Translations under genes and position numbers: made by a program
Shown here: positions 17,332-28,677 of the stretch, in pieces
Layout: each line of letters starts with the position of its first letter
Numbering within the stretch: position 1 is the first letter of the stretch
Notes under the pieces: generated by a model
Seen by the model: only the letters and a program-made list of their open reading frames with translations
Told to the model about the DNA's origin: nothing
Database searches by the model: none
Origin: Fibrobacteria bacterium
GTDB lineage: Bacteria > Fibrobacterota > Fibrobacteria > UBA11236
Direction: 5' to 3'
Assembly (NCBI GenBank): GCA_041746255.1
Contig: JBGTHM010000102.1
Coordinates: forward strand, 28,758-92,757
DNA length: 64,000 nucleotides

Positions 17332-18273
17332 TTGCTATTTTCCAGGAACATGACGGATAATCCCATATCGGCGGACGCGGAGGTGGCTTCGGCGGTAGAG
17401 GCTTATTTGGCTTTTATCAAAAATGAAAGAGGTTACTCCCGGCATACCCAGTCCGCTTACGCAGGCGACTTAGCCAAGCTAACCGCCTGGTTGGAACAAA
17501 CTTCCGTTCCTGGAGGCGCTCACGCCGCCCTGGAGATACTGGACAAGAAATTATTGCAAAGATTCCTGTTGGCTCAGCGCGGCGGCTTTTCCGCGGCTAC
17601 CCAGGAAAGGCTTGTGGCCTGCCTGAAAGGCTTCGGTAAATTTCTGGCATTGCGGTATTCGATGGATAAGAATCCGGCACAGGGCCTGGTTTTCCCACGT
17701 AAGGAAAAAAAATTGGCATCGGTCGCGGGCGAGGGATTTTTGAAGGAGTTGTTGGAGGTGGAAGTCGACGGGTTTACCGCCTTGCGAACCCGGCTGTGTC
17801 TGGAGATGTTTTATGGCTCCGGCTTGCGCCTTAGCGAGTTGGTGAATTTGAAGTGGAACCATATTTCCCGTGATGCCCGCATGGCCCGGGTATTGGGCAA
17901 AGGCAACAAAATGCGCACCGTACCCCTTACCCAATCCGCGCAGGAGGCGCTTGGCGCCTACCGGGCCGAATGCTCCCGACGGGCCTATCCCCGGGATGGA
18001 GCCCTGCTGCTTACGCAAACCGGCAAGCCGCTGGGCGGACGAAGCGTACAAAAGAATATCACGGATCTGCTGCGCACGATGGGCAGACAGGGCAAATCTT
18101 CTCCGCATATTCTCCGCCACTCCTTCGCGACCCACCTTTTGGATCATGGCGCGGATCTCATGGCGGTGAAGGAGATGCTCGGACATTCCTCCCTCTCGAC
18201 CACGCAAAAGTATACGCATGTGTCGGTCGCCAAATTGAAGGAGACCTATGGACGCGCGCATCCCAGGGCCTGA
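17332..18273 (+). CDS. Tyrosine site-specific recombinase, XerC/XerD type
   Basis: N-terminal core-binding domain (ERGYSRHTQSAYAGDLAKLTAWL) and catalytic domain with RTVPLT, LRHSFATHLLDHGADLMAVKEMLGHSSLSTTQKYTHV (R...HxxR...Y). The ATG at 17350 is an alternative start. Confidence 0.8.
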   Translation: MLFSRNMTDNPISADAEVASAVEAYLAFIKNERGYSRHTQSAYAGDLAKLTAWLEQTSVPGGAHAALEILDKKLLQRFLLAQRGGFSAATQERLVACLKGFGKFLALRYSMDKNPAQGLVFPRKEKKLASVAGEGFLKELLEVEVDGFTALRTRLCLEMFYGSGLRLSELVNLKWNHISRDARMARVLGKGNKMRTVPLTQSAQEALGAYRAECSRRAYPRDGALLLTQTGKPLGGRSVQKNITDLLRTMGRQGKSSPHILRHSFATHLLDHGADLMAVKEMLGHSSLSTTQKYTHVSVAKLKETYGRAHPRA

Positions 18274-18330: not shown

Positions 18331-20607
18331 ATGACTGACTCACCGAATTCCGAATATGCCGTACGCACCCTCATGGAAAGGGTGGCTGTGCTGGAAGCCC
18401 GATGCGCGGAGCGTGAGGAGACCCTGAAGAGTCTGGGCAGTTTGACCGAAGGACGGGAATTGGAACTCAACCGTCTTAAGCTTCTATTCGACAATATTCC
18501 CGACGCCATCCACTTCAAAGACAAGGAAGGCCGTTACACCTGGGTAAACAAGGCCAAGGCGGATTCCATGGGGCTTAAAGACAGATCCGAGGCGATAGGC
18601 AAGACCATGTTCGAAACGTATTCGGCGCAATTCTCCTGGGAGGTTCTGGCGGAAGAGCAGAAACTGATGACGACTCAGGTTCCCATCATCGATAAAATCG
18701 AAAGGATAACCCGGAAAGATGGTGAGGTACGGTGGCATCAGGTGACCAAAATCGCCCTGCTCGACTCGGAGGGTCAGGTAGTGGGAACCGCTGGAGTCAT
18801 GCGGAATATCACCGAACGCAAGCAGATGGAGGACGAACTGTTCAAAGCAAGTATGCTATTGAATACTTTCCTCGATCAGGTTCCAGATGCGGTGTATTTC
18901 AAAGATGTGGAATGCCGTTTCATTCGAGTCAGCCGCAGTATCCACCTTGAGGGAATGAAAAACAAAGAGGAGGCCATAGGTAAGACCGATTTCGACTATT
19001 TCACGGAGGAGCATGCGCGCCAGGCTTATATAGACGAGCAGGAAATTATCCGAACCGGCGTTCCCATAATCGATAAAATTGAAAAGGAGACCTACCGCAA
19101 TAAGGAAGAGACCTGGGTTTCCACCACCAAGGTCCCCTACTACGATGCGGAAGGAAAGGTGGCCGGCATCATAGGCATATCCCGCGATGTTACCGAGCGA
19201 TTCCGGGCGCAGGAAGCCATACGGATGGCCAAGGAAGAATTGGAAATCCGGGTGCAGGAGCGCACGGCTGCGTTGGTGCAGGAAATTCGTGAGCATCTCA
19301 AAATGCAGAAGGCGCTCAGGGACAGCGAAGGAATGTTGCAGGACTCGAACGTTCGGCTGGAAACGCGCCTGTCGCAATTGAAATATTTGAACGCGACGGC
19401 GCATCAGCTTTCGCAATTCACCAGCAGGAAGGACTTGCTGCCCGCCATTCTCAGATCTTTTACTCAATGTTATCCGGGTCTCGAAATGGTCCTATGCGAA
19501 GGCTCTAACGGAGAGTTGCGCTGCACGGCGGCGACTCCGGGTCTGGATAATCCAGTCGCCAGGGCCGCCTGCGAAAAGGCTCTCTCCGCAGGATACGATT
19601 CCCTGGACGCCAGGCTCGTAGTCGACCGAAGGCTGGACCCGACGTTGGCCGGCCTGAATATCAAGGGTTTTGAGCATTTGACCGTGCATTTGGCGCTCCC
19701 GTTGGTCATGAAGAACAGGCGGATTGCCGTGGCGCAAATATTAGCCGCCAAAGAATTCGCGGAATGGTTTCCCCTGGAGCAGGAAATGATCGATACGCTG
19801 GCCGCGCAATCCGCTATCAGTCTGGACAACGCCAACAATTTCGAAGAATTGGAGAAGCGGGCCCGGGTGCAATCCGAACTCGACGTGGCCCAGCGCATCC
19901 AACGGCGCTTCACTCCGCAAGACCGGGTATCCATTCCCCGCCTCCAGGTTAAAGGTGTGTACCACCCTGCTTATGAAGTCGGCGGGGACTACCTGGATTA
20001 TTTCGAAACCAAATCCGGAAGTTGGGTGATTGTAATCGCAGACGTAAGCGGAAAAGGAATACCCGCGGCGTTGGTGATGACGATGTTGCGAAGTACCTTC
20101 CGGGCCGAGGCACGCTACGAGACTTCGGCCAAAAAACTGCTTTGCGCCGTGAACGACATGATGAGCCAGGATTTGGACGAAAAATCCTTCGTGACGGCCC
20201 TGTGCCTTATCGTCGACAAGGATGGACGTTCCATGACATACGCCCGCGTCGGCCACCCGCCTTTGGTGATTCGGCGTAAGAGCGTGGAGTCGCCGGAAAC
20301 CATCACTCCCAAGGGAATCGGACTGGGAATGGTGGATGCCGAAACGTTCACGCGTACCATTGAGGAAGTGCATATCGATTTGACCGAAGGCGACCGCTTT
20401 CTCATCTTCACCGACGGTCTCACGGAAGCGCGCGATTCAAACAAGGAGTCCTACGGAATGGAACGGGTTATGGGCCAATTATCGGGAGGAGAGCGCCTGG
20501 GTCCCGAAAAGGCCCTGAATAGACTTCTCAAAGACGTTGAGGCCTTTATCGGCAATGAACCTTATCATGATGATTTGACCATTTTGGCGATGGAAGTCAT
20601 CGGATAG
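18331..20607 (+). CDS. Multi-PAS / GAF sensor fused to a PP2C-type (SpoIIE/RsbU-like) serine phosphatase
   Basis: Three PAS-like modules, each ending ...RDVTERK / RNITERK, are followed by a GAF-like region and a C-terminal PP2C domain (GGDYLDYFE...VIADVSGKGIPAALVMTM...FTDGLTEARD). Confidence 0.8.
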   Translation: MTDSPNSEYAVRTLMERVAVLEARCAEREETLKSLGSLTEGRELELNRLKLLFDNIPDAIHFKDKEGRYTWVNKAKADSMGLKDRSEAIGKTMFETYSAQFSWEVLAEEQKLMTTQVPIIDKIERITRKDGEVRWHQVTKIALLDSEGQVVGTAGVMRNITERKQMEDELFKASMLLNTFLDQVPDAVYFKDVECRFIRVSRSIHLEGMKNKEEAIGKTDFDYFTEEHARQAYIDEQEIIRTGVPIIDKIEKETYRNKEETWVSTTKVPYYDAEGKVAGIIGISRDVTERFRAQEAIRMAKEELEIRVQERTAALVQEIREHLKMQKALRDSEGMLQDSNVRLETRLSQLKYLNATAHQLSQFTSRKDLLPAILRSFTQCYPGLEMVLCEGSNGELRCTAATPGLDNPVARAACEKALSAGYDSLDARLVVDRRLDPTLAGLNIKGFEHLTVHLALPLVMKNRRIAVAQILAAKEFAEWFPLEQEMIDTLAAQSAISLDNANNFEELEKRARVQSELDVAQRIQRRFTPQDRVSIPRLQVKGVYHPAYEVGGDYLDYFETKSGSWVIVIADVSGKGIPAALVMTMLRSTFRAEARYETSAKKLLCAVNDMMSQDLDEKSFVTALCLIVDKDGRSMTYARVGHPPLVIRRKSVESPETITPKGIGLGMVDAETFTRTIEEVHIDLTEGDRFLIFTDGLTEARDSNKESYGMERVMGQLSGGERLGPEKALNRLLKDVEAFIGNEPYHDDLTILAMEVIG

Positions 20608-20727
20608 GTTTTTTTCAGCCGTTACTTGGGTGTACCCATAATACCTCAATAACGGTGTTTTTTCCCTGAAACGGTTTATCCCCCATTAATTAGGCGAAAA
20701 ATAGAGTAACGCGCTATACTCAATAGC

Positions 20728-22329
20728 ATGCGAACCTTGATTCTTCTTATCCTGCTTTTTTCCGTCATCGGCGGGAAACAATCCTACGCCCAAACCCAGC
20801 CGCTTCCGAATTTTATGCTCATTGTCGCCGACGACATGGGACCGCAATTGGAAAAGTATGGCCACCCCGGCGCGCGGACTCCAACTCTGGACTCCCTCGC
20901 CAATCAGGGAGTGTTGTTCCGAAACGCGCAGGCGCCGGGGTCCACCTGCTCGGTCGCGCGCGCGTCGATCATGACCGGCACCCATCCCCATACCCATAAT
21001 GTGCGCATTAACGTGCATGAATACATGGGTCCGAAACCGAATTTCAGCAGCAATGAATTGAATTTGATGCAATCGCAGGCCCTTCCCGATTCCCTGGCTA
21101 CCTTGGTGGAGCTTCTGGTCAAGGCGGGCTATCGTACCGGACTTACCAAGAAATTCCATACCGCTTCCCATGACCGGTATCCCTATCACGAGTGGCTGAA
21201 AGGGGACGAAACTTCCGAGGTAAAAGCCTTTATCCAACGTGCCGGAGCTAAGCCCTGGTTCTTGATGGTGAATGTCAGTTCGCCCCATCGTCCCTTTCGC
21301 CTATTCCAAAGTGTAGGCCCGACGCCAAACGAATCCGTATTCAAACTTCCCGGTCACTTTCCGAATACTCCGGTGATTAAAAAAGATTGGACTGAATACC
21401 TGAAAGCCATCCAACGTACCGATGCCGAAGTGGGAATAGCCGTGAATTCCGTGCGCCAATTGAACCAGGCGAACAAAACCGTGATTATTTTCGTGGGCGA
21501 TCATGGTCCGCCCTACCATCGCGGGAAATACTCTACTTATGGATTCGGAGTGAACATACCTTTCATCGTTTCGGGGCCACCTGATTTGGTGAAGAAAAAT
21601 CCGCAAGGCGCGACTTCTTTGGTTAGCCTAGTCGATATCATGCCGACTTTACTGGATTATGCGGGTATTGCTAAACCGCGCGGCGTCCAGGGAGTTTCGT
21701 TGAGGCCATTATTGCTGGGAACTGCGGGGGCCAAAACCCATGATTATTTGTTTTCCGAGGTCCATCATGGCGGCGGGAGCCCGGGCTCTGCTTTGCAAGA
21801 GCGTTCGATTTTTGATGGCCGCTTCCGTTTGATCTTCCGGGATCATTTGCAGAAGCGCTATATCGTTCCGGGGGATAACCGCGAGGTCAGTCCTTGGGGT
21901 AACCCGGTTTATGCCGAAATCATCAAACGCAAAGGCGAATTCCCCGCTCAATATGCCATGCTGGCGCAACGGGATTCCGATTTGGAGGGGAACGCTCCCA
22001 TGGCGGAGTTCTACGACACCTCCACCGACCCGTGGGAAGTAAAAGATTTATGGAATTCCCAAAACCATAATGAGGATAAAAACCGGCTGATTCGGGCCTT
22101 GGCGGATTGGGGCCGGGAAACGGGAGACAGGTATCTCGACTATGCAAAGCTGGGAGGGACCATTTCCATTCATTCCCCAAAAACTTTCCCTGGATCGGAA
22201 GCGCTGAACGGCCGAACCACCAGCGGATTCGGTATCACTCCGCTGTTTGAATACCAGTCCGAGGACGGAAGTTTACAATTCCGCGATTCCCAGGGCCGTA
22301 GCCGGATTCCGGCGCTCTTGCCTCAGTAA
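20728..22329 (+). CDS. Sulfatase family protein, paralog 1, secreted
   Basis: Signal peptide followed by LIVADDMGPQLEKYGHPGARTPTLDSLA. The formylglycine motif is the CxAxR variant (CSVARASIMTG). The metal-binding GDHG is also present. Confidence 0.8.
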   Translation: MRTLILLILLFSVIGGKQSYAQTQPLPNFMLIVADDMGPQLEKYGHPGARTPTLDSLANQGVLFRNAQAPGSTCSVARASIMTGTHPHTHNVRINVHEYMGPKPNFSSNELNLMQSQALPDSLATLVELLVKAGYRTGLTKKFHTASHDRYPYHEWLKGDETSEVKAFIQRAGAKPWFLMVNVSSPHRPFRLFQSVGPTPNESVFKLPGHFPNTPVIKKDWTEYLKAIQRTDAEVGIAVNSVRQLNQANKTVIIFVGDHGPPYHRGKYSTYGFGVNIPFIVSGPPDLVKKNPQGATSLVSLVDIMPTLLDYAGIAKPRGVQGVSLRPLLLGTAGAKTHDYLFSEVHHGGGSPGSALQERSIFDGRFRLIFRDHLQKRYIVPGDNREVSPWGNPVYAEIIKRKGEFPAQYAMLAQRDSDLEGNAPMAEFYDTSTDPWEVKDLWNSQNHNEDKNRLIRALADWGRETGDRYLDYAKLGGTISIHSPKTFPGSEALNGRTTSGFGITPLFEYQSEDGSLQFRDSQGRSRIPALLPQ

Positions 22330-22340
22330 GGACCTCCATA

Positions 22341-22428
22341 CGATTGAATGCGGATACCGCCCACGAGCTGGGAGATGCCCGCAATGCTCGGAAAGGCAGG
22401 TTGTTGATGCGAATGGTATTGCGCTATA
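22341..22428 (-). pseudogene. Remnant of about 85 bp of a MacB/FtsX-type permease gene between the sulfatase paralogs
   Basis: Positions 22351..22392 are about 88% identical to 24441..24478. Positions 22392..22428 are about 87% identical to 24778..24812 of the intact permease gene, in the same orientation. The minus-strand translation NTIRINNLPFRAL matches the intact protein's KTIRINNLPFRVI. In the intact gene the two segments lie 300 bp apart and are flanked by the 8-bp direct repeat ctcgaaag. Confidence 0.55.
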
Positions 22429-22437
22429 TTCAATGGT

Positions 22438-24039
22438 ATGCGATCCTTAATACTTCCTATACTGCTTTTTTCCGTCATCGGCGGTAAACTATCCTTCGCC
22501 CAACCTCAGCCGCTTCCGAATATATTGCTCATTGTCGCCGACGATATGGGACCGCAACTGGAAAAGTACGGTCATCCCGGTCCGCGCACTCCCACCTTGG
22601 ATAGCCTCGCCAATGAGGGAGTATTATTCCGAAATGCCCAGGCGCCAGGGTCTACCTGCTCAGTTGCGCGCGCGTCGATAATGACCGGCACCCATCCGCA
22701 TACCCATAATGTGCGCATCAACGTGCTGGAGCACATGGGTCCGAAACCGAATTTCAGCGGCAACGAATTGGATTTAATGAATTCGCAGGCCCTTCCCGAT
22801 TCTTTGTCGACATTGGTGGAACTACTGGTCCAGGCAGGCTATATAACCGGAATTACCAAGAAATTCCATACCGCTTCCCATGATAAATACCCGTTTCACG
22901 AATGGATGAACGAAGGGGAGACCTCCCCGGCGCATTCTTTTATCCAGCGCGCGGGAGACAAACCCTGGTTCTTGATGGTCAATATCAGTTCGCCCCATCG
23001 GCCATTTTTTAAGTACCAAACGGTAGGCCCGACGCCTGACGAAGCGGTTATCAAACTCCCCGGCCACCTACCCTCCACTCCCACGATCAGGAAGGATTGG
23101 ATTGAATACCTGAAAGCCATTCAACGTACCGATGCTGAGGTGGAAAGGGTCGTCAGTTCCATACACCAATTGAATCGTGCGGGCAAAACCGTCATTATTT
23201 TCGTAGGCGATCATGGTCCAGCCTACCATCGGGGGAAATTCTCGACCTATGGATTCGGCGCGAACATACCCTTCATCGTCACGGGACCACCCGATTTAGT
23301 CAAGAGGAACCCGCAAGGGTCGGATGCTTTAGTCAGCTTGATAGATATTATGCCAACCTTACTGGATTATGCCGGTATCGGTAAACCCCGCGCCATACAG
23401 GGAGTCTCCCTGAGGCCATTATTGCTGGGAAATGCGGAGGCCAAAACCCATGATTATTTATTTTCCGAGGTTCATCACGGCGGCGGCAGTCCGGGCTCTG
23501 CTTTGCAGGAGCGTTCGATTTTCGATGGCCGCTTCCGCTTGATCTACCGGGACCATATGCAGTGGCGCTATATCGTTCCGGGGGATAATCGCGAGGTAAA
23601 TCTTTGGGAAAACCCGGTTTATGCCGAAATTATCCAGCGCAAAAGCGAGTTCCCTATTCAATACTCCATGCTGGCGCAAAGGGATTCCAATTTGGAGGGA
23701 GATGCTCCCATGGCGGAGTTCTATGACACTTCCACCGATCCGTGGGAAGTAAACGATCTTTGGAAGTCTCAAAACCAAACGGAAGATAAAAATCGGCTGA
23801 TTCTGGCTTTGGTGGATTGGGCCCGCGAAACAGGTGATACGTATCTCGACTATACAAAGATAGAGAAAACCGTTTCCATCCATTCCCGAAAAACAACCAC
23901 CGGAGGGGGAGAGTTGAACGGCCGAACCCCCATTGGGTTCGGTACTACTCCGCTGTTTGACTACCAGCCCAAGGATGGAAGTTTACAATTCCGCGATTCC
24001 CGGGGACGTAGCTGGATTCCGGCGCTATTGCCCCAGTAA
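22438..24039 (+). CDS. Sulfatase family protein, paralog 2, a tandem duplicate of 20728..22329
   Basis: Same length (533 aa) and about 80% identical to paralog 1 across the whole protein. The roughly 20 bp upstream of the start are also shared (cgctatattcaatggtatg versus cgctatactcaatagcatg). Confidence 0.8.
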   Translation: MRSLILPILLFSVIGGKLSFAQPQPLPNILLIVADDMGPQLEKYGHPGPRTPTLDSLANEGVLFRNAQAPGSTCSVARASIMTGTHPHTHNVRINVLEHMGPKPNFSGNELDLMNSQALPDSLSTLVELLVQAGYITGITKKFHTASHDKYPFHEWMNEGETSPAHSFIQRAGDKPWFLMVNISSPHRPFFKYQTVGPTPDEAVIKLPGHLPSTPTIRKDWIEYLKAIQRTDAEVERVVSSIHQLNRAGKTVIIFVGDHGPAYHRGKFSTYGFGANIPFIVTGPPDLVKRNPQGSDALVSLIDIMPTLLDYAGIGKPRAIQGVSLRPLLLGNAEAKTHDYLFSEVHHGGGSPGSALQERSIFDGRFRLIYRDHMQWRYIVPGDNREVNLWENPVYAEIIQRKSEFPIQYSMLAQRDSNLEGDAPMAEFYDTSTDPWEVNDLWKSQNQTEDKNRLILALVDWARETGDTYLDYTKIEKTVSIHSRKTTTGGGELNGRTPIGFGTTPLFDYQPKDGSLQFRDSRGRSWIPALLPQ

Positions 24040-24109
24040 CTCCGCAAAAGGCTCTCTGTCCCCGGGTTTGGACCGACATTCCTTTGGGGCCTTGATAGCG
24101 TCTTAGGGC

Positions 24110-25330
24110 TTATTCAAACCGCAGCGCATCGATGGGATTCAGGCGCGAGGCCTTGCCCGCCGGATACCAGCCAAAAAAAACACCGGTGGCGAAGGAAAAT
24201 CCGAAGGCCATCAGAATAGACGCGGTGGAGACTTCCACGGCCCAGCCCTGTGCGGATGCCAGGAATTGCGAGGCACCCACTCCCAAAGAAATGCCGAGTA
24301 TGCCTCCCAAGAGGCTGATGGCTACCGCCTCCACCAGGAATTGCAAGCGGATGTCGCGGCCCCGGGCGCCCAGCGCCAGGCGGATGCCGATTTCACGCGT
24401 TCTTTCCGTAACGGAAACCAACATGATGTTCATGATGCCGATGCCGCCCACCAGCAGGGAGATTCCCGCAATGCTCGAAAGCAGTAAAGCCAATGTCCGG
24501 GAGGTCGAGGTGGCCGCCTCGGTGATTTCGGTTTGGGTACGGATATTGAAGTCCGATTCTTGATTCGCGGCAATGCGTAGGCGTCGTCGCAGTATGGATT
24601 CGATTTGCGCCGATGCTTCCGGGATGGCCTCCTCCGATATGGCTGAGGCGAAGAGGCTTTCCACATAGGTGGTGCCGAGCATTTTCTTCTGGACGGTGGA
24701 GAAAGGCGCCAAGACGATATCGTCCTGATCCTGGCCGAAGGAGCTTTGGCCTTTGGATTCCAGCACACCGATGACTCGAAAGGGCAGATTGTTGATACGA
24801 ATGGTCTTGCCGATGGGATCCACTCCCTCCTCGAAAAGCCCGGCCGCGACGGTCGAGCCCAGGATGCATACCTTGGCTCCCCCGCGTTCTTCCGAAGGGC
24901 CATAGGCCGCGCCCTGGGCCAGGCCCCAATCCCGGATAAACAGGTATTCGGCATATACGCCATGTACCCGGGTTCGCCAATTGCGATTGCCGAATTTGAA
25001 TTGCGCCATGCTGCGCACCACTGGGGTGATATAACGTACCGCCGGTGATTCGGCATAAATGGCGTCGGCCTCGGCCTCGGTGAAGCGGCTTGCCGTGCCG
25101 GCCTCCTGGCGTGCTCCCGAAAGGTTACGCGATCCCGGATAAACGTTTATCACATTGGTGCCAAGACTGGAAATGGCGGCTTCAACCGAGAGGCGCGCTC
25201 CGGTACCCACGGCCATCATGGTGATGACGGCCGCCACTCCGATGATAATGCCCAACATGGTCAGAAAGGTGCGTAGCTTGTTTCGCGAAAGGGAGAGGAA
25301 GGCGATTTTAAGCAGTATGGTGGTCCGCAT
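24110..25330 (-). CDS. ABC transporter permease, MacB/FtsX family
   Basis: N-terminal TM segment (LRTFLTMLGIIIGVAAVITMMAVG), a large periplasmic domain, and a C-terminal FtsX-type TM bundle. Confidence 0.85.
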   Translation of the reverse strand: MRTTILLKIAFLSLSRNKLRTFLTMLGIIIGVAAVITMMAVGTGARLSVEAAISSLGTNVINVYPGSRNLSGARQEAGTASRFTEAEADAIYAESPAVRYITPVVRSMAQFKFGNRNWRTRVHGVYAEYLFIRDWGLAQGAAYGPSEERGGAKVCILGSTVAAGLFEEGVDPIGKTIRINNLPFRVIGVLESKGQSSFGQDQDDIVLAPFSTVQKKMLGTTYVESLFASAISEEAIPEASAQIESILRRRLRIAANQESDFNIRTQTEITEAATSTSRTLALLLSSIAGISLLVGGIGIMNIMLVSVTERTREIGIRLALGARGRDIRLQFLVEAVAISLLGGILGISLGVGASQFLASAQGWAVEVSTASILMAFGFSFATGVFFGWYPAGKASRLNPIDALRFE

Positions 25331-25332
25331 GT

Positions 25333-26079
25333 TCAGGTCTCCCCGATGTCGGTGAGAAATTGGGTTAATTCCGTCTGGGCCGAATGGGGGTGCGGATTTA
25401 GGGTATCCGATACGATGGATCCGTCGCGCACTACCACTTGGCGTCCGGTGAAGGCAGCGATATCCGGTTCATGGGTGACCAGTACCAGGGTAATGCCTTG
25501 GGCGTTCAGGTTTTGGAACAGGGTCATGATTTCCAGACTGGTACGGGTGTCCAGGTTACCCGTGGGCTCGTCCGCGAGAATGATGACCGGGTCGTTGACC
25601 AGAGAGCGCGCCACGGCCACCCGCTGCTGCTGGCCCCCCGACAATTGGTTGGGATGGTGGTGCATGCGATCGGCCAACCCCACGGATTGCAAGGCTTGCA
25701 CGGCCCGTTCCCGGATTTTAGCCGCCGGCACATCCTTGCGGTAGAGCAAGGGTAACTCTACGTTTTCCAACGCCGATGTACGTGAGAGAAGGTTGAAGGA
25801 TTGAAAGACGAATCCCAGTTTACGGTTGCGTACCTCAGCCAAATCGTCGGGCTTGAGGCTTTGGACTTCCTTGCCGTCAAGCCGATAGGATCCTTCCGTA
25901 GGGGCATCCAGGCAGCCGAGAATATTCATGAGGGTGGATTTTCCCGATCCGCTCGGACCGCTGACGGCGACGAATTCACCACGTTGGATGTCGAGATCCA
26001 CCCCACGCAAGGCTTTCAAGGTCACCTCGCCCATTTGGTAAATCTTGGTCAAGTTCCGTACCGAAACGATGGAATCCAT
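25333..26079 (-). CDS. ABC transporter ATP-binding protein, MacB/LolD-like
   Basis: Walker A GPSGSGKST, signature LSGGQQQRVAVARSL and Walker B ILADEPTGNLD. Confidence 0.9.
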   Translation of the reverse strand: MDSIVSVRNLTKIYQMGEVTLKALRGVDLDIQRGEFVAVSGPSGSGKSTLMNILGCLDAPTEGSYRLDGKEVQSLKPDDLAEVRNRKLGFVFQSFNLLSRTSALENVELPLLYRKDVPAAKIRERAVQALQSVGLADRMHHHPNQLSGGQQQRVAVARSLVNDPVIILADEPTGNLDTRTSLEIMTLFQNLNAQGITLVLVTHEPDIAAFTGRQVVVRDGSIVSDTLNPHPHSAQTELTQFLTDIGET

Positions 26080-26084
26080 AGCGA

Positions 26085-27329
26085 TTAACGCCTCCGCCGG
26101 GGCTGCATGCCAAAAGGGCTGGACGGCTGTCCGCCGGGTCTTGTTCCCTCCGCTTCCATGCCCGTAACTGCCAGGTCACCGGCTTGCAATTCTCCCCGGA
26201 CTTCGTTGCGAATCCCGTCGCTCAGGCCCACCCGCACGCGAACCGCCACGGGATTTCCATCCTTCAACAAAAAGACGCGTCCGGACGCCTCTCTGGCCCC
26301 GGCCTCTCCGTCCGAGGTTCGCCCATCCCTTCCCCCACCTGCCCGTCCTCCGCCGTCGCGGCGTTCGCCTGCTGGAGTCGAAGGCCGGCGCTCCCCGCCG
26401 TTATTGGACTTTTCCGTTACGGGGGGCCGAAAGCTGAGTGCCGCGGCGGGAACCACCAGCACGTTCTCGCGTCTATCGACGATAATGGCAAGATTCGCCG
26501 TCATGCCGGGCATGAGTCTTCTTTCGGGATTCGGTACGCGTATGACAACGTCGTAAGTGACCACGTTCTGTTCGACGAGGGGTTGCAGGCGCACCTGTTC
26601 CACCACTCCGGTGAAGGTTTCTTCGGGATAGGCGTCCACGCTGAAGGTCGCGGACTGGTCTTTTTGGATTTTTCCGATGTCGGCTTCGTCTACCGCCGCT
26701 TTCACCTGCATTTCACGCAGGTCTCCAGCCAGTATGAAGAGAGTAGGCGCGCTGAAGCTGGCGGCTACGGTCTGGCCTACGTCCACCGCGCGCGAGAGCA
26801 CGATGCCGTCGATGGGCGATGTGATGGTGGCGTAGCGGAGATTGATGCGGGAGCGGTCTACCTGGGCGCGGGCGGAGTTGGAATTGGCTTCGGCGACGCG
26901 GGCCTGCGCTTTGGCCCGGTCCAGCTCAGCTTGCGACATCAAGTCCTTGTCGAACAAGGCCTTGGTCCGTTTCAATTCCTCGTCAGCCTGGAAAGCCTGG
27001 GCTTCGGCGCGAGCCATGTTGGACAAAGCGTCTTGCAGGGCGGCGCTTAAAAGCGTGCTGTCGAGTCGGGCGATTACCTGGCCTTTTTTCACTTCGGAAT
27101 TGAAATCGGCGTATAAAGCGGCGATGGTTCCCGAAACCTGCGTGCCCACCAATACCGTGGTAAGCGCTTCGAGTTTGCCGGTGGCGGTAACCGATTTTTC
27201 CACGGATCCCAAGGTAACGGCGGCGGTACGCCAGGCGATATCCGGTTTTTTCTTGAAACCGAAATGAAAGGCGCCATACCCTAGGATGCCTAACAAGGCG
27301 AGAACCAGCGTGATTTTAGTTTTAGTCAT
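26085..27329 (-). CDS. Efflux periplasmic adaptor (HlyD/MacA family membrane fusion protein)
   Basis: N-terminal TM anchor, coiled-coil hairpin region and beta-barrel/lipoyl-like segments. A Gly/Arg/Asp-rich low-complexity insert lies near the C-terminus. Confidence 0.8.
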   Translation of the reverse strand: MTKTKITLVLALLGILGYGAFHFGFKKKPDIAWRTAAVTLGSVEKSVTATGKLEALTTVLVGTQVSGTIAALYADFNSEVKKGQVIARLDSTLLSAALQDALSNMARAEAQAFQADEELKRTKALFDKDLMSQAELDRAKAQARVAEANSNSARAQVDRSRINLRYATITSPIDGIVLSRAVDVGQTVAASFSAPTLFILAGDLREMQVKAAVDEADIGKIQKDQSATFSVDAYPEETFTGVVEQVRLQPLVEQNVVTYDVVIRVPNPERRLMPGMTANLAIIVDRRENVLVVPAAALSFRPPVTEKSNNGGERRPSTPAGERRDGGGRAGGGRDGRTSDGEAGAREASGRVFLLKDGNPVAVRVRVGLSDGIRNEVRGELQAGDLAVTGMEAEGTRPGGQPSSPFGMQPRRRR

Positions 27330-27357: not shown

Positions 27358-28677
27358 TTATAAAGGCGATTTGTTCTGTGGGGCTTCGACAATCAATCGT
27401 CCCGATAGGCGCTGTAACGATAATTCCGAAGATTTAGTGGATTGCCGGGCCGCGGCCAGACGGCTACGCGCGTCAAGCAACCTTTGCTGTGCCGCACGGA
27501 ATTCCAGCGAGGTGGAAGCGCCTGCGCGAAAAACTTCGCGTGCGGCTTCGGCTTGCATGCGCACTACTTCCAGATTACGCGCTTCCAGGTCAACCTGACG
27601 CAGGCCCGTAGCATAACTTTGCGCGGCGCGCTCGAAATCCGCCCGCACACTTTCTTGTTGTTGGACCAAGCGGGTTTCGCCTTGTCTAAGACCGAGGCGG
27701 GCATTTCCCACATTGCGCTGCGTGTTGAGCCGATCGAAAAGGGGCATGGAGAGGTTAATCCCGTATGAGGGTCCGCCGGTATTGCTGAATGCCGGTGCTT
27801 CGGGATTGAGGGCCTCGGGTTGGGCGGAATAGGAGATATTGCCGGAAACTCGCGGGAGATGGCCACCTCGGGCTTCTTTCACACTCAGGGCAGCCGCCTC
27901 TTTTTCGGCTCTGGCACGGGCGATGTCGGAATTTTTTTCGGTGAGATTCATGCGCCAGGTTTCCAAAGGAAGGTTTTCCGCCAAGGGAATGGTGTCGATA
28001 ACTTCGAAAGACGTAATGGGATCGCGGGCCAGGAGTTGATTCAATTGGATTTTGGCATTGTGCAAAGCCGTCTGTTGCGAAAACAGAGCGGAAGAGTCGG
28101 CGTTCAAATCCGCCAGCGATTGCAACTCTTCCAGCCGGGTGCCCGCTCCCAACTCCGCTCGGGCCGCCGCCAGCCGGGCCCTTTCGCGGGAAACTTCCAG
28201 CAGCTCTTCGAGAGCGGAAAGCCGTTGCCGTTGCTGCACGATTCCGAAATACCCGTCGAGTATGGCCTGCCAGGTCGCTTCAATCGCGGCCTGTTCGGAC
28301 AGCCTGGCGGAAATTTCCTGGGCCTGCAGGCGATTATACGTGTTGTAGGAGCGAAAGCCATCGAAAATAAGGAGTCCGAGTGAAGCGCCTACGGAGGTGC
28401 GGGCGGCTCCACCTTCAAAATCGCCGGTATGGCCTGCCGATGCCGAAAGTTCGGGGAGAAAGGGCCCGATGCCCGCACGACGGTTGTTCTCCGCAATGGA
28501 AGTCTGATCGCGGGCCAGCGACAGCGAGTGGTTATTTTCCAGGCCAATGCGAACAGCCGCTTCGGGGGTGAGTAATTGGGACTTTCCCGGCAAGAGCGAG
28601 TTGCAAAGCCCAAGCAGGAAAAACCGGGAAAAATTCTTCGAGGCTTTACCGGTTCGCAGTCTCATGTTCTCCTCCAT
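27358..28677 (-). CDS. TolC-family outer membrane efflux protein
   Basis: Signal peptide, two-fold repeated coiled-coil/beta architecture, typical TolC/OprM-like composition and a length of 439 aa. Confidence 0.8.
   Translation of the reverse strand: MEENMRLRTGKASKNFSRFFLLGLCNSLLPGKSQLLTPEAAVRIGLENNHSLSLARDQTSIAENNRRAGIGPFLPELSASAGHTGDFEGGAARTSVGASLGLLIFDGFRSYNTYNRLQAQEISARLSEQAAIEATWQAILDGYFGIVQQRQRLSALEELLEVSRERARLAAARAELGAGTRLEELQSLADLNADSSALFSQQTALHNAKIQLNQLLARDPITSFEVIDTIPLAENLPLETWRMNLTEKNSDIARARAEKEAAALSVKEARGGHLPRVSGNISYSAQPEALNPEAPAFSNTGGPSYGINLSMPLFDRLNTQRNVGNARLGLRQGETRLVQQQESVRADFERAAQSYATGLRQVDLEARNLEVVRMQAEAAREVFRAGASTSLEFRAAQQRLLDARSRLAAARQSTKSSELSLQRLSGRLIVEAPQNKSPL

Follow-up and report, generated by a model that had tools for sequence, protein, structure and literature searches.

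A 108-bp spacer (22330–22437) between two adjacent sulfatase genes of a Fibrobacteria bacterium contains 75 nucleotides (22348–22422) that are very probably the dead relic of a second copy of a MacB-type permease gene, co-duplicated with the sulfatase and then eroded by deletion. Coordinates throughout refer to the window, the whole 64,000-nt stretch of DNA that was analyzed. The evidence comprises two collinear matches to the intact permease gene downstream, a joint between them that falls on a short direct repeat of that gene, and the tandem relationship of the flanking sulfatases.

The two sulfatase genes lie on the plus strand and are closely related. Paralogue 1 (20728–22329) encodes 533 aa with Pfam Sulfatase and SGSH_C domains, a CSVAR active-site motif, and a signal peptide; paralogue 2 (22438–24039), also of 533 aa, aligns to it without indels at 82.4% nucleotide and 80.7% amino acid identity. 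Divergence between them amounts to a dS of 0.60 and a dN of 0.11 (omega 0.18; pS 0.415 by NG86), and third codon positions are 70% identical. A search of 5.8 billion proteins places the two paralogues nearest to each other (81% amino acid identity); the best match beyond the pair is at 46%, in an unrelated context, and no intermediate was found in that collection.

Homology between the two genes extends into their flanks, from 17 (perhaps 22) nt before the ATG (20711 or 20706, corresponding to 22421 or 22416) through the stop codon. Within the 5′ leader of sulfatase 1 (20706–20727, plus strand), homology with sulfatase 2 is certain from 20711 and possible from 20706: positions 20711–20760 and 22421–22470 are identical at 42 of 50 sites, and the corresponding pair in a repeat search of the window (D1) begins at 20706 and 22416. 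Adjacent, on the same strand, mutually closest in sequence, and homologous into their flanks, the sulfatases are evidently a lineage-specific tandem pair. Upstream of the pair lie a PAS-PAS-SpoIIE (PP2C-type) phosphatase gene (18331–20607) and an XerC/D-like tyrosine recombinase ORF (17332–18273) with Phage_integrase and SAM-like N-terminal domains.

Downstream of sulfatase 2, and convergent with it on the minus strand, is a four-gene efflux operon. It consists of the intact MacB-type permease gene (24110–25330; 406 aa, MacB_PCD and FtsX domains), presumed to be the sister of the lost copy, followed by genes for an ABC ATPase (25333–26079), a HlyD-type membrane fusion protein (MFP; 26085–27329), and an outer membrane factor (OEP; 27358–28677), an arrangement typical of the OEP–MFP–ABC–permease operons of MacAB–TolC-type tripartite pumps. 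The closest permease homologues, at 65–70% amino acid identity, are in Fibrobacteres/Fibrobacteria metagenome-assembled genomes (MAGs), which makes that phylum the probable source of the window, and the same OEP–MFP–ABC–MacB operon is kept in Fibrobacterota-like relatives (L086 and L087). The relatives that share the operon have unrelated genes 3′ of the permease, which makes the sulfatase a lineage-specific neighbor. Downstream of the operon, one of these two relatives carries a TetR regulator and a second efflux system, and the other a Cu-oxidase and an FGE-sulfatase-domain protein.

BLASTN of 22300–22470 against the whole window returned exactly two strong matches besides self and the flanks of the other sulfatase; both fall within the permease gene, in collinear order and without a change of strand. 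The first, segment A, aligns 22348–22393 to 24435–24480 with 40 of 46 positions identical (87%; E = 6e-11, 57.2 bits); the second, segment B, aligns 22387–22422 to 24775–24810 with 31 of 36 identical (86%; E = 1e-6, 43.7 bits). An independent repeat search of the window returned both pairs (D6 and D13). When the 75-nt core was shuffled 1,000 times, the best score against the window was 31.9 bits, and neither observed score was approached. The first-pass annotation had reported two permease-like segments in this spacer, in the same orientation as the gene, and had called for a check against chance; BLASTN and the shuffles uphold both segments. Its coordinates, which were 1–6 nt off, are revised: Segment A had been placed at 22351–22392, matching 24441–24478, and segment B at 22392–22428, matching 24778–24812, whereas B in fact ends at 22422.

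The minus-strand translations agree with this picture. Segment B reads NTIRINNLPFRAL where the gene has KTIRINNLPFRVI, a correspondence already claimed in the first-pass annotation, and segment A, in a different frame, reads SIAGISQLVGGIRIQS against SIAGISLLVGGIGIMN; the permease peptides encoded by the relic are TIRINNLPFRAL and SIAGISQLVGGIRIQS. In nucleotides and in translation, the similarity lies beyond chance, as expected of a relic—a pseudogene fragment—of a MacB/FtsX-type permease gene.

Read from left to right, the spacer runs from the sulfatase 1 stop codon through 18 nt (22330–22347), permease codons ~298–286, a solo repeat copy, codons 186–175, and a GTATTGC joint to a 17-nt leader. 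Segment A without the repeat (22348–22386, minus strand) corresponds to codons ~286–298 (SIAGISLLVGGIG), in the FtsX domain's TM/VGGIG motif, and has two inactivating changes, L292Q and G298R. Segment B (22387–22422, minus strand) corresponds to codons 175–186 (KTIRINNLPFRV) in the MacB periplasmic core domain. At the joint between relic and leader (22416–22422), GTATTGC aligns both to GTCTTGC in the permease (24804–24810) and to GTAACGC in the sulfatase 1 leader (20706–20712), with a shared microhomology, read directly from the sequence, of at least 2 nt (GC). The 17-nt leader (22421–22437, plus strand) is all that sulfatase 2 retains of its original upstream region. The relic as a whole lies 3′ of sulfatase 1 and convergent with it, mirroring the intact permease 3′ of sulfatase 2.

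Nothing in the relic could still be translated as a permease: It lacks a start codon, its two segments are out of frame with each other, and stop codons occur close by. Both L292Q and G298R change residues that are invariant in 14 homologues, which fits a pseudogene fragment. The relic matches the periplasmic-core and TM motif regions of a MacAB–TolC-type permease but is itself no gene: Only ~25 codons are left, split over two frames, and invariant residues are altered. Gapped alignment of the 18 nt (22330–22347) to 24040–24440 gave at best 12 of 17 identities, to 24070–24086, which is not significant. No remnant of the ATPase, MFP, or OEP genes and no further permease remnant was found in 20500–22450, and the 64-kb window holds no second permease gene.

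The alignments of segments A and B overlap exactly on CTCGGAAAG (22387–22395), a slightly mutated single copy of the direct repeat CTCGAAAG; the intact gene has this repeat at 24474–24481 and again, 301 bp away, at 24775–24782. An overlap of 8 nt between randomly joined ends has a chance of ~4^-8. The sister gene has the repeat at both breakpoints and the spacer keeps one copy, as a deletion between short repeats leaves it; because 301 bp is not a multiple of three, the reading frame changes between the segments. The first-pass annotation had seen here a substrate for microhomology-mediated deletion, and the coincidence of the joint with the 8-bp repeat bears this out. It had given the repeat as ctcgaaag at 24473 and 24775, 300 bp apart: The repeat itself stands, and the first position and the distance are corrected to 24474 and 301 bp. 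In the intact gene, two 9-mer direct repeats, GATGCCGAT (24383 and 24434) and CGATGGGAT (24130 and 24811), sit right next to the outer limits of segments A and B; as possible endpoints, they yielded no consistent scheme of deletion or duplication.

Joints of this kind have precedents. Duplicated genes are documented to be lost through deletions flanked by short direct repeats (3–24 bp; PMC2893956), and in Escherichia coli RecA-independent deletion between nearby short direct repeats is documented, through slippage during replication or template switching at post-replication gaps (PMC7145654). In the fractionation of maize homeologues (PMC2893956), as here, a redundant duplicate is lost piecemeal, and the surviving sister has both copies of a short repeat (8 bp in our case) of which the eroded copy keeps one. 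The maize losses followed a whole-genome duplication, whereas the present case concerns a bacterial tandem duplication of a few kilobases, of which only 75 nt of surplus sequence survive, without an outgroup from which to reconstruct the state before deletion. The E. coli events (PMC7145654) resemble ours in repeats a few hundred base pairs apart (301 here), the retention of one copy, and the loss of exactly the repeat-to-repeat distance; the difference is that here the mechanism is read from a fossil joint.

The classical lacI deletions of E. coli, described by Albertini et al. in 1982, reportedly ran between short direct repeats as well. The gradual disappearance of such remnants has a parallel of its own in bacterial pseudogenes, which are said, following Mira, Ochman and Moran in 2001, to erode under a deletional bias. 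As in that process, in which nonfunctional DNA shrinks by successive deletions to short intergenic remnants, little of the permease copy is left; unlike the usual remnant, this one sits where a tandem duplication was joined and so also shows how far the duplicated unit reached.

The segments are shown to be homologous to the permease gene, to be collinear with it, to read in two frames, and to meet on a repeat, and the sulfatases are shown to be paralogues; a short series of events would account for all this. An ancestral segment containing the sulfatase gene and at least the adjacent part of the convergent permease gene would have been duplicated in tandem; the unit would have run from just upstream of the sulfatase into the permease, over ~2.39 kb if it ended at codon 175. 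In the upstream copy, the permease sequence would then have been removed by illegitimate deletions of RecA-independent type. One of these would have taken ~395 bp, comprising the permease 3′ end and the intergenic region, and put 18 nt in their place; another would have removed the 301 bp between the two CTCGAAAG copies, leaving one copy and a frameshift. Codon 175 would have been joined to position −17/−22 of the sulfatase 2 leader, either at the duplication junction or by deletion. The remnant, without coding capacity, would now be only the intercistronic spacer of a probable two-sulfatase transcription unit. We infer the order and number of these events, the size of the original unit, and the co-transcription of the sulfatases, and the single-genome basis limits how closely this history can be followed.

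Related genomes were searched for intermediate stages, as the first-pass annotation had suggested, and none turned up in any collection searched. The permease had a best match of 70% among 5.8 billion proteins and of 56% among genome contigs, the latter with no intermediate stage; sulfatase 1 had nothing closer than 25% in metagenomes, and an exact look-up of the window's sulfatases gave no match. In the genomic context of relatives with the four-gene operon, a sulfatase stood beside the operon in none, and no relative in any collection searched had a longer permease fragment or a second copy of the operon. The spacer had been called direct evidence that the duplication unit once included part of the permease gene. 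Permease-derived sequence is indeed present; "direct" claims too much, since the searches returned no intermediate-stage genome and the argument is inferential.

How much of the permease was duplicated, and how long the copy remained intact, bears on the pattern of substitutions. Counted without doubling the joint, relic and gene differ at 10 positions (11 with it), of which 7 (8) are third codon positions; 7 changes are synonymous and three are replacements (L292Q, G298R, and K175N). The NG86 estimates (pS 0.33, pN 0.09, omega 0.22) give a profile almost that of the sulfatase pair, and the proximity of the relic's pS to the sulfatases' 0.415 is compatible with a single duplication event. A relic evolving neutrally since a duplication at dS 0.6 would be expected to show an overall identity near 70% and ~13 replacement-site differences; it shows 3, in ~55 sites. 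These counts hint that the relic has kept more of its sequence than neutral decay over its apparent age would have left.

One variant of the co-duplication account takes up this deficit and differs from it in unit size and timing: The duplicated unit would have contained a complete, expressed permease gene, most likely within the whole OEP–MFP–ATPase–permease operon, which stayed under purifying selection for most of the time since the duplication and was deleted only recently. We consider this quite possible, if somewhat short of an even chance. The excess of third-position and synonymous differences, an omega like that of two intact sulfatases, the few replacements, and a synonymous divergence similar to that of the sulfatases all favor it, and a copy that was partial and dead from the start fits the replacement-site deficit less well than a working copy that persisted. 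Against the proper null, an internal one with one neutral and one constrained lineage, the departure reaches only P ~0.06 in a small sample. The sulfatase-clock test gives P ~0.01 or lower but is post hoc and biased, since only a well-kept relic gets noticed. Polarization by orthologues, tentative with synonymous sites near saturation, assigns 4 synonymous changes to the gene lineage and 6 changes to the relic lineage, 4 at third and 2 at first or second positions (P = 0.10). Nor is any ATPase, MFP, or OEP relic left near sulfatase 1. The same substitution pattern would follow from early gene conversion or from constraint imposed by what the spacer does today. Taken at this strength, the data hint that the lost copy may have been a complete gene, long under selection, most likely together with its operon, and deleted late.

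A one-step rearrangement is improbable by our estimate, though not negligible. Here serial template switching, of the MMBIR or post-replication-gap type, would have built the duplication junction itself: Two short permease patches would have been copied before re-entry upstream of the sulfatase, and there would never have been a long fragment or any trimming. Microhomology occurs at every joint: the 8-bp CTCGAAAG internally and, where the leader begins, GC or an imperfect 7-mer. Both patches are short and come from close by in collinear order, and switching of templates between direct repeats is documented to occur independently of RecA (PMC7145654). The 18 nt also show an inverted match to the start region of sulfatase 2, of the sort that templated filler would leave, but it is weak and not significant (P ~0.08). 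The forward-only jumps are equally explained by successive deletions, and the neutral decay since duplication that this course predicts fits poorly with the low replacement-site divergence. The earlier description of the permease sequence as "later trimmed" fits the deletions, but a single complex template switch would leave the same joints.

Whether the relic derives from the neighboring gene or from another member of the family was addressed by comparing its two segments, position by position, with the DNA of orthologous permeases of 67–70% amino acid identity (L084–L087). The segments behave differently. Across the 39 nt of segment A, which encode the invariant S-I-A-G-I-S-L-L-V-G-G-I-G block, the local gene and the orthologues agree at 35 positions, the spacer and the gene at 34, and the spacer and the orthologues at 32; even a Bacteroidetes MAG, with a permease at 56% amino acid identity, shares an exact 29-mer (29/29) with the gene here. 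Segment A is as similar in distant orthologues and therefore shows MacB ancestry but not which MacB gene was the source. Across the 36 nt of segment B, the gene and the orthologues agree at 21–27 positions, the spacer and the gene at 31, and the spacer and the orthologues at 22–28, and in 80 more distant loci the best was 20 of 22. Segment B is thus informative: Among the sequences compared, it appears to match the local gene best, by a modest margin.

The conservation of segment A at the nucleotide level is an observation in its own right. The stretch 24435–24473 (codons 286–298) is identical at 35 of 39 nt in orthologues whose overall third-position identity is ~48% (L084–L087), and the Bacteroidetes MAG shares its 29-mer; synonymous sites of the VGGIG region therefore look constrained across phyla.

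A fragment of a different MacB-family gene, whether a distant paralogue or foreign DNA, would owe its likeness to the local gene to motif conservation across the family. Both segments do lie in the family's most conserved blocks, and the figures for segment A are those such a source would give. We nevertheless regard it as very unlikely: Segment B sides with the local gene, the relic is placed and oriented as the intact permease is at sulfatase 2, and the 8-bp repeat of the joint is present at both sites of the local gene. The caveat is that segment B together with the mirrored position and orientation, and not segment A, appears to tie the relic to its neighbor. With the joint repeat at both local sites added to position and orientation, co-duplication is much the simplest way to explain where the relic came from. 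A chance resemblance can be set aside as next to impossible, and so can an assembly artifact, given E-values of 6e-11 and 1e-6, none of 1,000 shuffles above 31.9 bits, and an identity of 87% where a mis-assembly would yield 100%.

The relic, on the co-duplication account, leaves sulfatase 2 with only a 17-nt leader, so that it probably depends on the sulfatase 1 promoter and is co-transcribed with sulfatase 1. A scan of 22330–22437, made without the promoter types of this phylum, found no sigma-70 promoter or intrinsic terminator consensus, and such sites elsewhere in the scanned region were at chance level. No Rfam family matched the spacer; the single hit, sR43, scored 15.3 bits (E = 0.27), far below its gathering score of 45. 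The stretch 22327–22449 is predicted to fold as a single long, imperfect hairpin at −45.5 kcal/mol (z = −2.35; 3 of 200 shuffles as good). The relic lies inside this hairpin, and the sulfatase 1 stop codon is paired with the sulfatase 2 start codon. The idea that substitutions in the relic built the hairpin found no support: With the relic reverted to the state of the gene, the stretch still folds into it (−40.8 vs. −45.5 kcal/mol), and 8% of trials with random substitutions gave as good a fold (P = 0.08).

Over 39 + 36 nt, the sulfatase transcript would also be ~87% complementary to the mRNA of the permease. The relic might have been kept by co-option, with the hairpin or the complementarity tuning translation of sulfatase 2 or linking the sulfatases to the efflux pump; we hold this to be a long shot. 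If true, it would also explain why the relic is preserved beyond neutral expectation.

Read as the remnant of a co-duplicated permease, the spacer is a clear instance of known, ordinary gene decay and involves no new mechanism or element. Removal of the surplus permease by short-repeat deletions would follow a route known from experiment in E. coli and from comparison in plant genomes. For annotation, the relic accounts for an otherwise odd spacer. For this lineage, it is a datable scar, indicating that the duplication of the sulfatase probably reached into or across the neighboring efflux operon.
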